Source: Escherichia coli
Lineage (GTDB): Bacteria > Pseudomonadota > Gammaproteobacteria > Enterobacterales > Enterobacteriaceae
Assembly: GCF_048403405.1 (NCBI RefSeq)
Contig: NZ_CP183129.1
Length of the DNA stretch: 64,000 nucleotides
Direction: 5' to 3' (one strand)
In this document: positions 27,779 to 31,109 of the stretch, in pieces
How the letters are laid out: every line of letters begins with the position of its first letter
How positions within the stretch are numbered: the stretch's first letter is position 1
Translations under genes and position numbers: made by a program
Notes under the pieces: generated by a model
Told to the model about the DNA's origin: nothing
Database searches by the model: none
What the model saw: the letters and a program-made list of their open reading frames with translations, nothing else

Positions 27779-29062
27779 TTAGTCTTTAGCTGTTGCATTT
27801 TGTTTATGAAACAGTTCACGGAACACCGGATAAATATCATCCTGGTCGCGGATATGCTGCATCGCAAAGTTGTCGAAAGTAGATTGCAGATGCTCATATT
27901 CTCGCCACAGTGTCTGATGAGCGCGACGGGTAATTTCGATATAGCTGTAATAACGAACGACGGGTAATAATTTTTTCGCCAGGATTTCATGGCAAAGCGG
28001 AGAGTCATCGGCCCAGTTATCGCCGTCCGATGCTTGTGCCGCGTAAATATTCCACTGTGCCGGGTTATAACGCTCTTTCACTACCTCATCCATCAGTTTC
28101 AGGGCGCTGGAAACAATGGTGCCGCCAGTTTCCTGCGAGTAGAAAAACTCATGTTCATCGACTTCTTTCGCCTGGGTATGATGGCGGATGTATACGACTT
28201 CCACGTTCTTATATGTTCTGCTGAGGAACAGATACAGCAGAATATAAAAACGCTTAGCCATATCTTTAGTGGACTGATCCATTGAACCGGAAACGTCCAT
28301 CAGGCAAAACATCACTGCCTGGCTGGAGGGATCGGGCCGCTTCTCGTAGTTCTTGTAACGTAAATCGAAGGTGTCAATGAAAGGGACGCGTTCAATTTTG
28401 GCACGTAATTCTGCAATTTCTTTGCGCAGACGTTCCTCTTCCAGCAGTTGCGCAGGTTCACTATTGCTGATGATGGCCAAATTCTCTTCCAGCGCATGAA
28501 GTTCCCGCCGCTTGCCCGCCGTCATGGCTGTGCGTCGTGCCAGTGAGTTCTGCAATGAACGCACAACACTGATATTGGCCGGAACGCCGTTAGCGGTATA
28601 ACCCGCACGATGCGTTTTATATTCGGTCAGCTGGCGTTGTTGGTTTTGTTTCAGATTCGGTAAGGCCAGATCTTCAAAGAGCAGATCAAGATACTCATCT
28701 TTCGAAATCTGAAAGACAAATTCATCTTGACCTTCACCATCCTGGCTGGCCTGACCCTGACCACTGCCGGAACCTCCGCCGCCACCCTGGGGACGTTCAA
28801 TTCGGTCATTCTGGACGAAATGGTCATTGCCCGGATGCACGCGGTGGCGCAGACCGCCACGCCCCTGATGAAACATCGGTTCGCTAATATCTTCCGTGGG
28901 AATGGATACAGACTCGCCGCTGTCGACGTCAGTCACCGAACGCTTATTAATGGCCTCGGAGATCGACTGTTTAATTTGCGCTTTATAACGGCGTAAAAAA
29001 CGCTGGCGATTCACCATGCTTTTGTTTTTGCCGTTCAGACGCCGGTCAATAAACCAGGTCAT
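27779..29062 (-). CDS. yeaH: UPF0229 / DUF444 protein (YhbH-like)
   Basis: 427-aa ORF with glycine-rich [11 protein letters not shown] segment; downstream of yeaG on the same strand. Confidence 0.9.
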
Positions 29063-29174
29063 ATGCCCCCCGTACTACATTTGCCAACTGTATGCTACGC
29101 CTGTGTTGCCGCTTCTCTGGCCCACGGTTCGCTGTCGTTGTAGGCCCGGTAGCATGTGTACCGGGCCAGGGTTG

Positions 29175-31109
29175 TTAAGACGATTTACGTACGCGCAAAT
29201 ACCATTCGCACAGTAAACGCACCTGTTTACGGGTGTAGCCTTTTTCCATCATACGGTCGACAAAATCGTCGTGTTTCTTTTGCTCGTCGGTTGACGTTTT
29301 GGCGTTAAACGAAATAACCGGCAACAGCTCCTCGGTATTGGAGAACATTTTCTTCTCAATAACCGTGCGCAGTTTTTCATAGCTGGTCCAGTTCGGATTG
29401 CGTCCGCTGTTATTCGCTCTGGCGCGCAGTACGAAGTTAACAATCTCGTTGCGGAAATCTTTTGGATTACTGATCCCCGCCGGTTTCTCGATTTTCTCCA
29501 GCTCGGCGTTAAGAGACTCGCGATCAAACAGCTGCCCGGTATCCGGATCGCGATACTCCTGATCCTGAATCCAGAAATCCGCGTAGGTAACATAACGGTC
29601 GAAAATGTTTTGCCCATATTCGGAATAGGATTCAAGGTAGGCCGTCTGGATCTCTTTGCCGATAAACTCGGCATATTTCGGGATCAGATAACCTTTCAGG
29701 AACTCCAGATAGCGTTCTGCCTGCTCTTGCGGGAACTGCTCGCGCTCGATCTGCTGTTCCAGGACGTAGAACAGATGGACCGGGTTTGCCGCCACTTCTA
29801 CATGATCGAAGTTGAACACGCGGGAGAGGATCTTAAACGCAAAACGCGTCGACAGACCGTTCATCCCTTCATCGACACCGGCGTAGTCACGATATTCCTG
29901 ATACGACTTGGCTTTGGGATCTGTGTCTTTCAGACTTTCGCCATCATAAACCCGCATCTTTGAATAAATGCTGGAGTTTTCTGGCTCTTTAAGGCGCGAA
30001 AGAATGGAAAAACGTGACAGCGTTTCCAGCGTGCCAGGGGCGCAGGGGGCGTGAGTCAATTCACTGTGATTAAGCAATTTCTCGTAGATTTTGATCTCTT
30101 CGGAAATGCGCAAGCAATACGGCACCTTCACGATGTAAACACGATCAAGGAAGGCTTCGTTGTTTTTGTTATTACGGAAAGTGACCCATTCGGATTCGTT
30201 CGAGTGGGCGAGAATAATCCCGTTGAACGGCAGGGCGGAGATACCTTCCGTCCCGTTGTAGTTACCTTCCTGAGTGGCGGTTAGCAAGGGATGCAGCACT
30301 TTAATCGGTGCTTTAAACATCTCAACGAATTCCATGATCCCCTGGTTGGCGCGGCACAGTGCACCGGAATAGCCGTAGGCGTCCGGGTCATTCTGCGCGT
30401 AGTGTTCGAGTTTACGAATATCGACTTTCCCAACCAGCGCGGAGATGTCCTGGTTGTTCTCATCACCGGGTTCCGTTTTGGCGATAGCAATTTGTTGCAG
30501 AATTGACGGCCAGACCTTCACTACCCGGAACTTAGTGATATCGCCACCAAATTCATGCAGGCGTTTTGCCGCCCACGGCGACATGATGGTGCCGAGATAA
30601 CGGCGAGGAATGCCATACTCTTTTTCCAGAATCTGCGCATCTTCCTGCGGATTGAAAAGACAGAACGGATGATCGTTGACCGGGCTACGCTCACCGTTGG
30701 CGCTCAATACATAAATCGGTACGAGCTGCATTAATGATTTCAGTCGCTCAGCAAGCGATGATTTACCCCCACCCACAGGCCCCAGCAGATACAGGATTTG
30801 TTTCTTCTCTTCCAGCCCCTGAGCCGCGTGTTTCAGATAAGAGACAATCTGTTCAATCGCGTCTTCCATGCCGTAAAACTCTTCAAACGCCGGATAACGT
30901 GCAATGACCCGGTTAGAAAAGAGTCGAGAAAGTCTGGGTTCCTGGGCTGTATCGACCATGACAGGCTCACCGATAGCCATCAATAGCCGCTCAGCCGCGT
31001 TGGCATAAGCACTGCGATCTTGCCGACAAGTGGTAAGAAACTCCTGCAGTGTGAACTCTTCGTCCTTGGCAGCTTCATATCGCTGGCGATAGTGATCGAA
31101 TATATTCAT
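29175..31109 (-). CDS. yeaG: PrkA-family serine protein kinase
   Basis: 644-aa ORF; Walker A LLGPVGGGKSSLAERLK. Confidence 0.93.
   Translation of the reverse strand: MNIFDHYRQRYEAAKDEEFTLQEFLTTCRQDRSAYANAAERLLMAIGEPVMVDTAQEPRLSRLFSNRVIARYPAFEEFYGMEDAIEQIVSYLKHAAQGLEEKKQILYLLGPVGGGKSSLAERLKSLMQLVPIYVLSANGERSPVNDHPFCLFNPQEDAQILEKEYGIPRRYLGTIMSPWAAKRLHEFGGDITKFRVVKVWPSILQQIAIAKTEPGDENNQDISALVGKVDIRKLEHYAQNDPDAYGYSGALCRANQGIMEFVEMFKAPIKVLHPLLTATQEGNYNGTEGISALPFNGIILAHSNESEWVTFRNNKNNEAFLDRVYIVKVPYCLRISEEIKIYEKLLNHSELTHAPCAPGTLETLSRFSILSRLKEPENSSIYSKMRVYDGESLKDTDPKAKSYQEYRDYAGVDEGMNGLSTRFAFKILSRVFNFDHVEVAANPVHLFYVLEQQIEREQFPQEQAERYLEFLKGYLIPKYAEFIGKEIQTAYLESYSEYGQNIFDRYVTYADFWIQDQEYRDPDTGQLFDRESLNAELEKIEKPAGISNPKDFRNEIVNFVLRARANNSGRNPNWTSYEKLRTVIEKKMFSNTEELLPVISFNAKTSTDEQKKHDDFVDRMMEKGYTRKQVRLLCEWYLRVRKSS

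Follow-up and report, generated by a model that had tools for sequence, protein, structure and literature searches.

The yeaGH operon and its intergenic gap

The window, i.e., the whole 64-kb stretch of E. coli DNA analyzed, carries yeaG and yeaH in tandem on the minus strand, with a stem-loop, a repeat remnant and a conserved leader block in the gap between them (Table 1). The identities and coordinates of the two genes and their common orientation had been described in an earlier note, which left the strand itself unstated; all were borne out by the open reading frame (ORF) list, Pfam and E. coli annotation, and the Walker A motif of the PrkA-type kinase gene and the length of the gap also proved correct. 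Pfam assigned the domains AAA_PrkA (1e-187) and PrkA (9e-71) to YeaG and DUF444 (4e-191) to YeaH. Many E. coli chromosomes contain the region with 100% identity and have the genes annotated as yeaG and yeaH. The order AAA_PrkA plus PrkA followed by DUF444 on the same strand was found in 80 enterics and four distant proteobacteria, and the domain content and same-strand order of the window place it in this PrkA/YhbH operon type.

Both genes and the operon are identical to the yeaGH studied by McQuail et al. 2023 and Figueira et al. 2015, with expression driven by RpoS- and NtrC/RpoN-dependent promoters. YeaG and YeaH jointly exert a brake on metabolism under nitrogen starvation. A simple promoter scan returned no sigma-70 candidate within the gap and hence does not support an internal yeaH promoter. 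At the other end of the operon, a terminator scan called a candidate intrinsic terminator, an 11-pair stem followed by UUUUU, which begins 4 nt past the yeaH stop codon.

Table 1. Position of genes and sequence features of the yeaG-yeaH locus in the window
Feature	Coordinates	Strand	Description	Basis
yeaG CDS	29175-31109	minus	644 aa, PrkA-family AAA+/kinase-like	ORF list, Pfam, E. coli annotation
Walker A motif GPVGGGKS of YeaG	30759-30782 (encoded)	minus	residues 110-117
yeaG-yeaH gap	29063-29174		112 bp
yeaG-hairpin spacer CAACCCU	29168-29174	minus	7 nt, from yeaG TAA to stem base	sequence
REP-type stem-loop GGCCCGGUA-CACAUGC-UACCGGGCC	29143-29167	minus	single copy per E. coli genome	fold, conservation
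GTAG tetranucleotide (CUAC in mRNA)	29140-29143	plus	abuts the palindrome	sequence; REP definition in PMC8266576
Term-seq RNA 3' ends of yeaG	29137-29138	minus		Adams et al. 2021 eLife, supplementary file 1
Decayed second REP GUGGGCCAGAGAAGCGGCA	29107-29125	minus		alignment to intact inverted REP
yeaH leader block AGUUGGCAAAUGUAG	29075-29089	minus	complementary to SdsR seed	conserved
yeaH Shine-Dalgarno (SD)-like GGGGGG	29066-29071	minus	3 nt ahead of ATG	near-invariant, 80 species
yeaH CDS	27779-29062	minus	427 aa, DUF444/YhbH family	ORF list, Pfam, E. coli annotation
Candidate intrinsic terminator of the operon	27741-27774	minus		terminator scan, sequence

A stable, U-less hairpin directly follows the yeaG stop codon

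The 9-bp-stem hairpin noticed earlier in the gap was confirmed at the same position. In DNA form, it reads GGCCCGGTA-N7-TACCGGGCC, i.e., a 25-nt palindrome with a perfect 9-bp stem (7 of the 9 pairs G-C) and a 7-nt loop, and in the mRNA sense its stem begins 7 nt after the yeaG stop codon. The predicted RNA fold has an energy of -18.0 kcal/mol compared to -8.5 ± 2.3 kcal/mol for dinucleotide shuffles (z = -4.2), with none of 200 shuffles equaling it. Perfect hairpins with a stem of at least 9 bp number 12 in the window versus 1.6 ± 1.1 in shuffled sequence; since such stems are rare by chance, the chance placement of one in a single 112-bp gap is about 0.3%. The fold of the whole gap (141 nt) was, in contrast, as stable as that of shuffles (z = 0.15), and the local hairpin is the sole significant structure of the gap. 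In the whole-gap fold, CCCU pairs at long range with the yeaH SD; this pairing was not conserved and was discarded. Rfam gave no family match at E ≤ 1 on either strand of positions 27000 to 32000.

The tail of the hairpin, CUACAACG, contains a single U in 8 nt, in agreement with the lack of a U-tract previously remarked. The stem of an intrinsic terminator is hence present and the U-rich tract (7 to 8 nt) is absent, and the hairpin does not figure in the list of the terminator scan.

The hairpin is conserved across the Enterobacteriaceae

A hairpin of the form GCCCGG..CCGGGC was found at the orthologous position in 57 of the 80 species, and in 56 of these 57 its core begins 6 to 12 nt past the yeaG stop codon, most commonly 7. 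The sequence of the spacer between stop codon and core varies across species. A GC-rich hairpin, with a median energy of -19.9 kcal/mol, lies within the first 60 nt in all 80 species; in 62 of them, at most 2 of 40 shuffles matched its stability. The tail contains at most three U residues in 78 of the 80.

In an alignment of 42 species, the stem is preserved with compensatory changes: 91.6% of the cells were paired compared to 27 to 53% in slid controls, both sides changed in 5 of the 10 pairs, and the covariation score was reached by none of 500 shuffles. Differing REP subfamily consensus sequences or copy replacement, rather than compensation in place, may underlie some of the covariation seen between genera. 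Within Escherichia, a genus without the multicopy repeat family described below, one inner stem pair forms an A-U, G-U, G-C series. Outside the Enterobacteriaceae, the prkA-yhbH operons have gaps of 19 to 61 nt with no consistent hairpin, indicating that a gene pair of the yeaG-yeaH type does not need one.

A solitary and diverged palindrome of the REP type

REP elements are defined by a conserved GTAG directly 5' of a palindrome (PMC8266576). At yeaG, GTAG abuts GCCCGG...CCGGGC, and the 25-nt palindrome, lying in a 112-bp gap, is an extragenic stem-loop within the 20- to 50-nt range of REPs. The third hallmark, many copies per genome, is missing in E. coli, where the hairpin occurs at one place in 5,424 of 5,426 genomes.

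Copy number outside E. coli was settled by a metagenome scan. The orthologous hairpin of Enterobacter, Citrobacter and Kluyvera, GCCCGGTGGCGC-NN-GCGCTTACCGGGC, is an exact member of a multicopy family, this palindrome being present at at least 120 metagenome loci, of which 5 of 120 adjoin yeaG/yeaH, in at least 22 distinct flank contexts. The CTAC tail accompanies 84 of 124 copies, several metagenome contigs carry two sites on one contig, and many copies lie 1 to 15 nt past a stop triplet. This GCCCGGTGGCGC..GCGCTTACCGGGC-CTAC family and the E. coli copy agree in position, in the GTAG and in the GCCCGG/CCGGGC pairs of the outer stem, whereas the E. coli inner stem and loop have diverged (GUAC..GCUAC, not UGGCGC..GCGCUUA). 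The family is nearly absent from E. coli: near-consensus copies were found in only 1,019 of the 5,426 genomes, at one or two per genome and always elsewhere than at yeaG. A tally of GCCCGG..CCGGGC hairpins outside the gap in the 80 retrieved loci was also tried as a copy-number test and was uninformative, coding sequence making up nearly all of the flanks; classical REPs likewise turned up there in the gap only.

The hairpin does not match the y, z1 or z2 REP types of E. coli either. Their consensus is GCC(G/T)GATG...CTTATC(C/A)GGCCTAC with an AA-GC bulge (PMC8266576), versus GCCCGGUAC..CUACCGGGC with a perfect, bulge-free stem at yeaG. It is thus a solitary, diverged REP-type palindrome that is single copy in E. 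coli, i.e., the relic of an old repeat and a textbook type of element rather than a new regulatory device. The MG1655 record shows no REP feature in the yeaG-yeaH gap, which is uninformative since none is shown between malE and malF either. The RepRanger supplements do not mention yeaG.

A second REP points to an ancestral BIME

Downstream of the hairpin, the gap contains a sequence that aligns to an inverted REP, GTAGGCCGGATAAGC..GCGCATCCGGCA, which is intact in some other Escherichia clades and in many genera. In the window it is reduced to a remnant, with an indel spanning about 13 alignment columns and GTAG changed to GTGG. Together, the hairpin and this second, inverted REP, intact in some Escherichia, suggest that the gap is an old BIME, the arrangement of a REP and an inverted REP with a linker between. 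From these alignments, the hairpin appears to be the retained half of a BIME that lay in the ancestral yeaG-yeaH gap early in the Enterobacteriaceae. Across genera, REP and ERIC insertions have been gained and lost in the gap. Neither the REP-type identity of the hairpin nor the SdsR pairing site that lies ahead of yeaH in the same gap had been noticed in the earlier note.

The yeaH leader carries a conserved SdsR pairing site

In the published work on this operon (McQuail et al. 2023; Figueira et al. 2015), SdsR acts on the yeaG 5' UTR, and RIL-seq chimeras of the type SdsR:::yeaG.yeaH.IGT connect it with the yeaG-yeaH intergenic region. The duplex computed between the SdsR seed and the yeaH leader has an energy of -19.5 kcal/mol, against -14.5 ± 2.4 kcal/mol for shuffled targets; only the seed region was used for the calculation, the full-length prediction being an unrealistic end-to-end duplex. 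The TTGGCA..TGCA block ahead of yeaH was also considered as a sigma-54 -24/-12 element and rejected because its GG-to-GC spacing is 7 nt, not the about 12 nt of such elements. The block is instead accounted for, on the predicted duplex, by complementarity to SdsR.

A yeaG RNA 3' end maps immediately past the hairpin

Published Term-seq data place the primary 3' ends of yeaG at MG1655 positions 1868879 (LB, optical density of 2.0) and 1868880 (M63), 5 to 6 nt past the stem (Adams et al. 2021 eLife; positions converted via the yeaG stop codon, 1868842 corresponding to 29175 of the window). Read counts at these ends are low, about 1,200 and 760, and the same table has no curated yeaH 3' end. A 3' end directly past a U-less, stable stem-loop is a defining property of protective 3' stem-loops of processed or Rho-dependent transcripts, and the data for yeaG display it. 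The yeaG 3' end could also be a decay intermediate without effect on expression. A full-text literature search for yeaG and Term-seq found nothing, the TERMITe supplements contain no yeaG, and passages and term searches of McQuail et al. 2023 and Figueira et al. 2015 gave neither an intergenic hairpin nor a yeaG-terminal 3' end.

The two cistrons are unequally represented in RNA. In published RNA-seq data from nitrogen-starved cells, the DESeq2 baseMean is 5,327.6 for yeaG and 1,791.6 for yeaH, which corresponds to a 1.97-fold excess per nucleotide. This figure is a normalized-count mean over wild-type and sdsR-deletion samples of one study, and library bias or the usual 5'-to-3' gradient of decay could also account for it. 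Since yeaG receives about twice the reads of yeaH per nucleotide, the equal abundance over both genes that, according to the earlier note, would speak against a role of the hairpin was not seen. The attenuation or processing of the transcript by the hairpin suggested there is consistent with both the 3' ends, mapped 5 to 6 nt past the stem in two conditions, and the approximately 2-fold yeaG excess, with processing and attenuation differing in probability as considered below.

A probable exonuclease barrier

On balance, we think it probable that the diverged REP stem-loop sets the yeaG 3' end, most likely as an exonuclease barrier that leaves a stable yeaG-only mRNA and an approximately 2:1 excess of yeaG over yeaH. 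In the yeaGH transcript, the stable, U-less hairpin would fold 7 nt past the yeaG stop codon and define the steady-state RNA 3' end 5 to 6 nt downstream. We infer that 3'-to-5' exonucleases (PNPase, RNase II), trimming inward from sites of cleavage or termination farther downstream, are halted by the hairpin, to which weak attenuation at the same place might add a contribution. The full-length yeaGH mRNA would thus be accompanied by yeaG-only mRNA that is stable and translatable, so that the yeaG message would exceed that of yeaH by about 2:1, the hairpin being the putative cause of the ratio; yeaH output would be set separately by its own leader, i.e., the SdsR site and the SD. Against this reading counts the base composition of the 80 nt past the hairpin, G rich rather than C rich, which does not favor Rho loading in the gap as a source of the precursors to be trimmed.

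There are close precedents for such a barrier. In E. coli, U-less stable stem-loops mark exonuclease-trimmed 3' ends, REPs accounting for 24% of these stem-loops (Dar & Sorek 2018). With this class of protective 3' stem-loops, the yeaG hairpin shares the U-poor tail and the precise 3' end directly downstream, but it lies inside an operon, not at its end, and the sequence downstream is not C-rich. REPs stabilize upstream mRNA (Newbury et al. 1987, as cited in PMC12306157), and the REP stabilizers of the malE-malF type are GC-rich extragenic palindromes with GTAG/CUAC and no U tract, a few nucleotides past the upstream stop codon, as at yeaG. The malE-malF REP itself has the same layout of stop codon, palindrome and CUACAA (-20.3 versus -18 kcal/mol), and common to both cases is an upstream cistron RNA that exceeds the downstream one. 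Like BIME-type stabilizers, the yeaG hairpin was once paired, by all appearances, with a second inverted REP. Unlike the malE-malF type, it is single copy, has no y/z1/z2 match and has a decayed second REP, and its stabilizing role is proposed here by analogy.

Alternative explanations

That the hairpin is a neutral relic, a leftover of a REP/BIME with no selected role whose 3' end is an inconsequential decay intermediate and whose 2:1 ratio reflects ordinary polarity or decay, is unlikely in our view. It would accord with the descent of the hairpin from a selfish multicopy repeat family, the decay in E. coli of the neighboring REP of the same gap, the turnover of REP/ERIC insertions there between genera, the hairpin-less gaps of distant prkA-yhbH operons and the low Term-seq counts. 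However, the stem has been retained with compensatory changes in every Escherichia species examined, in the absence of multicopy donors and while the adjacent REP decayed, and a strong stop-proximal hairpin exists in 80 of 80 species, even where it belongs to a different sequence family.

Because the stem lies only 7 nt past the stop codon, terminating ribosomes might stall at it, leading to mRNA cleavage, tmRNA rescue and lower YeaG. We regard such a translation brake, which would be compatible with the exonuclease barrier, as quite unlikely. REPs less than 16 nt from a stop codon downregulate translation (Liang, Rudd and Deutscher 2015, as cited in PMC12306157); the yeaG hairpin falls inside the 15-nt limit of that stop-proximal class as described there but differs from canonical E. 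coli REPs, and stalling at it would be by analogy. The near-constant distance of the core from the stop codon in 56 of the 57 species despite variation of the spacer sequence, and the many members of the multicopy family 1 to 15 nt past a stop triplet, are in keeping with a brake. A constant spacer length may, however, only mean that indels are rare, and of the two cistrons, yeaG has the more abundant RNA, which by itself gives no hint of destabilization.

A true attenuator, with RNA polymerase terminating at or just past the hairpin (as a U-less, weak intrinsic terminator or in a Rho-dependent, BIME-type manner) and a fraction of transcripts consequently missing yeaH, would equally produce a 3' end 5 to 6 nt past the stem and yeaH RNA at about half the yeaG level. 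Espeli et al. 2001, as cited in PMC12306157, reported that BIMEs can attenuate transcription, and low U content can yield inefficient intrinsic termination with Rho as backup (Dar & Sorek 2018). We nevertheless judge attenuation decidedly improbable here, given the single U of the tail (no more than three in 78 of 80 species) and the silence of the terminator scan. Rho loading in the gap is also disfavored because the 80 nt downstream of the hairpin are G rich, not C rich (27 G and 18 C), i.e., a poor rut site, and no sense-strand Rho termination region is listed at the locus in a data set from exponential LB cultures, in which yeaGH is barely expressed.

Cleavage by RNase III or RNase E at the hairpin, splitting the cistrons, is hardly credible: its sole support is a 3' end near a structure, the 9-bp stem is too short for RNase III, which requires roughly two helical turns, the end lies in the single-stranded CUACAA tail outside the stem, as exonuclease trimming predicts, and no Rfam family matches.

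Implications of an internal REP remnant in yeaGH

The main gain from these analyses is that the internal hairpin is a REP/BIME remnant whose RNA end already exists in public Term-seq tables. If the exonuclease barrier does produce a separate, stable yeaG message, the hairpin would be a simple cis layer fixing YeaG above YeaH, besides the posttranscriptional control by SdsR; a higher output of the first than of the second gene of an operon via such an RNA end is ordinary in bacteria. A more far-reaching and rather doubtful version is that the hairpin is a domesticated, single-copy REP selected as a stoichiometry valve, in which starvation-slowed termination of yeaG translation and trimming would uncouple yeaH. 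Were this so, the hairpin and the SdsR site about 55 nt downstream could make the YeaG:YeaH ratio tunable by growth state, with a possible bearing on the workings of this "metabolic brake" pair, which is poorly understood. A separate yeaG message would also be relevant to the design of yeaG and yeaH deletion, complementation and fusion constructs.

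Structure and setting of the yeaG-yeaH hairpin

The ORF coordinates and Pfam matches bear out the earlier note's description of a PrkA-type kinase gene with a Walker A motif (GPVGGGKS, YeaG residues 110-117) followed 112 bp later on the same strand by a DUF444 gene. The window is an E. coli chromosome: a 501-bp stretch spanning the hairpin matches many complete E. coli genomes at 100% identity, carries the annotation yeaG/yeaH in them, and occurs once per genome in 5424 of 5426 E. coli genomes. In the window, cdgI comes after yeaH.

Features of the yeaG-yeaH region (window coordinates)
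Feature	Position	Strand	Description
yeaG	29175-31109	minus	644 aa; Pfam AAA_PrkA + PrkA
yeaG-yeaH gap	29063-29174		112 bp
Hairpin	29143-29167	minus	GGCCCGGTA-N7-TACCGGGCC
Decayed classical REP	29107-29125	minus	GUGGGCCAGAGAAGCGGCA; aligns to intact GTAGGCCGGATAAGC..GCGCATCCGGCA
yeaH leader block	29075-29089	minus	AGUUGGCAAAUGUAG; also written AGUUGGCAAAUG(U/C)AG; SD at 29066-29071
yeaH	27779-29062	minus	427 aa; Pfam DUF444
Conventional terminator 3' of yeaH	27774-27746		11-pair stem then UUUUU; terminator scan

On the mRNA strand the hairpin starts 7 nt past the yeaG TAA and, as previously described, has a 9-bp stem without a U tract, the sequence 3' of the stem (CUACAACG) containing one U only. 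Its RNA folds at -18.0 kcal/mol, compared to -8.5 ± 2.3 in dinucleotide shuffles (z = -4.2), and perfect hairpins whose stem is at least 9 bp number 12 in the window versus 1.6 ± 1.1 in shuffles; chance therefore does not account for the structure. Four perfect 10- to 12-bp hairpins with internal or flanking A and T runs (8003-8029, 19164-19189, 32323-32347, and 34205-34232) look like bidirectional intrinsic terminators, that at 19164-19189 coinciding with strong Term-seq ends at the yeaQ/yoaJ locus (Adams et al.).

The intergenic gap as an old BIME

The hairpin of Enterobacter, Citrobacter, and Kluyvera has the sequence GCCCGGTGGCGC-NN-GCGCTTACCGGGC, with CTAC after it. Scanning of metagenome contigs found this exact stem-loop pattern at 120 loci at least. 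Among the matches listed, only 5 adjoin yeaG/yeaH; the remainder are spread over at least 22 distinct flank contexts and frequently lie a few nucleotides past a stop triplet or beside classical REPs (GTAGGCCGGATAAGC...); the CTAC tail is present in 84 of these 124 copies, and several contigs have two sites. REPs are defined as palindromes preceded by GTAG on one strand (PMC8266576), and GTAG directly adjoins GCCCGG at 29140-29143 on the + strand of the window. Multicopy palindromes in varied contexts with a CTAC tail are the signature of a REP family.

Whole-gap alignment revealed a second, inverted REP (GTAGGCCGGATAAGC..GCGCATCCGGCA) 16 to 18 nt past the first. Two Escherichia lineages (loci L002 and L006) and many genera retain it intact; in the window, K-12, E. 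albertii, E. whittamii, and Escherichia sp. E1V33, an indel spanning about 13 alignment columns has disrupted it, and its GTAG has become GTGG. Together, the hairpin and this inverted REP point to the gap being an old BIME, of which the first palindrome survives in E. coli and the second has decayed. The hairpin, as a REP/BIME remnant, thus belongs to a well-known kind of element and is not a new class of device.

The surviving hairpin is single copy in E. coli; the consensus of the related family is nearly missing there, one to two copies being present elsewhere in the genome in 1019 of 5426 E. coli genomes, and Rfam returned no match to the hairpin. The E. coli y/z REP type was rejected for the hairpin because of sequence mismatch, with the malE-malF REP as comparison. 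REP features are absent from the MG1655 annotation copy of NC_000913.3 (L001, L202, and L203) even in the malE-malF gap, a well-known REP site, so a repeat annotation missing from this copy does not mean that the source record lacks one.

Among the matches listed on the metagenome contigs (L082-L201), an A run precedes the palindrome GCCCGGTGGCGC..GCGCTTACCGGGC-CTAC in 10 of 22 contexts. Read on the opposite strand this would give a hairpin plus U run, and such copies could also serve to terminate convergent genes; no A run precedes the yeaG copy. Gaps in Citrobacter, Klebsiella, and Cedecea (L007, L008, L010, L013, L015, L030, L057, and L074) are lengthened to 194 to 296 nt by insertions (..GTGAATCCCCAGGAGCGTACATAAGTACGTGACTGGGGTGAGCG..) that, from the ERIC consensus, we take to be ERIC-like and that always lie downstream of the hairpin and ahead of the conserved yeaH leader.

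Conservation and maintenance of the stem-loop

The yeaG-yeaH gaps extracted from 80 Enterobacteriaceae species ranged from 57 to 296 nt, with a GC-rich stem-loop near the yeaG stop in almost every species. Median local fold energy was -19.9 kcal/mol, at most 2 of 40 shuffles folding as well in 62 of the 80 species, and the 8-nt tail past the stem had no more than three U's in 78. The stem was GCCCGG...CCGGGC in 57 species, and with a single exception their GCCCGG core begins 6 to 12 nt past the stop, most commonly at 7 nt. In a 42-sequence alignment anchored on both arms, 91.6% of the cells of a 10-pair helix held standard pairs, compared to 27 to 53% in controls with the 3' partner slid by 1 to 3 columns. 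Five pairs showed both-side changes, and none of 500 column shuffles reached the covariation score. The outer six pairs were nearly constant (three invariant, three with occasional G-U or A-U only), and variation at pairs 7 to 9 was U-A/C-G/U-G, A-U/G-U/G-C, and G-C/G-U.

A rival reading is that the hairpin is a neutral relic on which no selection acts. Where the family is active in a genome, REP subfamilies may account for part of the pair variation. Within Escherichia, where no multicopy donors of the hairpin were found, one inner pair is A-U in E. coli, G-U in strain E69, and G-C in E. whittamii and E1V33; such changes without multicopy donors, while the neighboring REP decayed, argue for some selection on the stem.

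Outside the Enterobacteriaceae, no consistent hairpin was found across the prkA-yhbH gaps of Legionella, Comamonas, Mesorhizobium, and Sphingobium replicons (45, 61, 19, and 36 nt, respectively; L205-L208), and the hairpin as such is dispensable for this gene pair. An annotated spoVR directly follows the pair in the first three genera, whereas the Sphingobium stretch has no spoVR annotation; in E. coli the spoVR homologue ycgB is located elsewhere.

A probable 3' barrier downstream of yeaG

In the curated tables of Adams et al. 2021 (eLife, PMC7815308), "primary" 3' ends of yeaG appear at MG1655 1868879 (LB, OD 2.0; 1211 reads) and 1868880 (M63; 762 reads), with none for exponential LB; a yeaH 3' end is absent from every sheet. 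With the yeaG stop ending at MG1655 1868842, these ends convert to window positions 29138 and 29137, 5 to 6 nt past the last stem base, the yeaG RNA ending in ...CCGGGCCUACAA(C). After 24 h of nitrogen starvation, DESeq2 mean normalized counts were 5327.6 for yeaG and 1791.6 for yeaH (McQuail et al. 2023), a per-nucleotide yeaG:yeaH ratio of 1.97 in this one dataset. According to Dar & Sorek 2018, stable stem-loops lacking a U tract mark steady-state ends after trimming by PNPase and RNase II, and REPs make up 24% of such protective stem-loops.

The best-supported reading is a REP-type stem-loop acting as a 3' barrier that leaves a stable yeaG-only RNA. From the steps observed, i.e., structure, conservation, 3' end, and unequal read density, we infer that the stem-loop would block exonucleases, so that this RNA persists alongside the full-length yeaGH RNA, and that the barrier would contribute causally to the yeaG:yeaH ratio. 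The malE-malF REP has the same layout, and REPs of this type have long been shown to leave a stable upstream RNA. Counting against a barrier are the G-rich 80 nt downstream of the hairpin, which offer no evident end for the untrimmed precursors; the low Term-seq counts at the yeaG end; and the single-dataset basis of the 2:1 ratio.

The hairpin could also act as a stop-proximal brake on terminating ribosomes, its 7-nt spacer being inside a reported 15-nt rule; this is compatible with the barrier model and the two can coexist. True transcription attenuation at the hairpin is disfavored by the missing U tract and poor rut context, and an endonuclease site is unlikely given a stem of just 9 bp. 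The public 3' ends and the approximately 2:1 reads lend partial support to the earlier proposal that attenuation or processing sets the YeaG:YeaH ratio, a proposal that missed the REP/BIME identity. The operon, the element type, and the mechanism are all established, and a published table already lists the 3' end.

A separate leader for yeaH

The only other conserved part of the gap is the last ~30 nt before the yeaH ATG. Its leader block is complementary to the SdsR seed CUGCAUUAAUGCCAACU, with a predicted duplex of -19.5 kcal/mol versus -14.5 ± 2.4 for shuffled targets (equaled by 30 of 1000 shuffles), and RIL-seq recovered SdsR:::yeaG.yeaH.IGT chimeras in every N- and N-24 replicate (McQuail et al. 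2023). Hence, downstream of the hairpin, yeaH carries a leader of its own under sRNA control. Passages of the operon papers describe RpoS and NtrC/RpoN promoters plus SdsR control, and these passages and term searches of the papers contain no mention of the hairpin. Adams et al. 2021 also report a region of Rho termination that lies antisense to the yeaH 3' end, at about 27805 on the + strand of the window (MG1655 1870212, minus), implying that antisense transcription enters yeaH from the cdgI side. In some genera the leader block is 6 nt shorter (AGTTGGCAGTAC).
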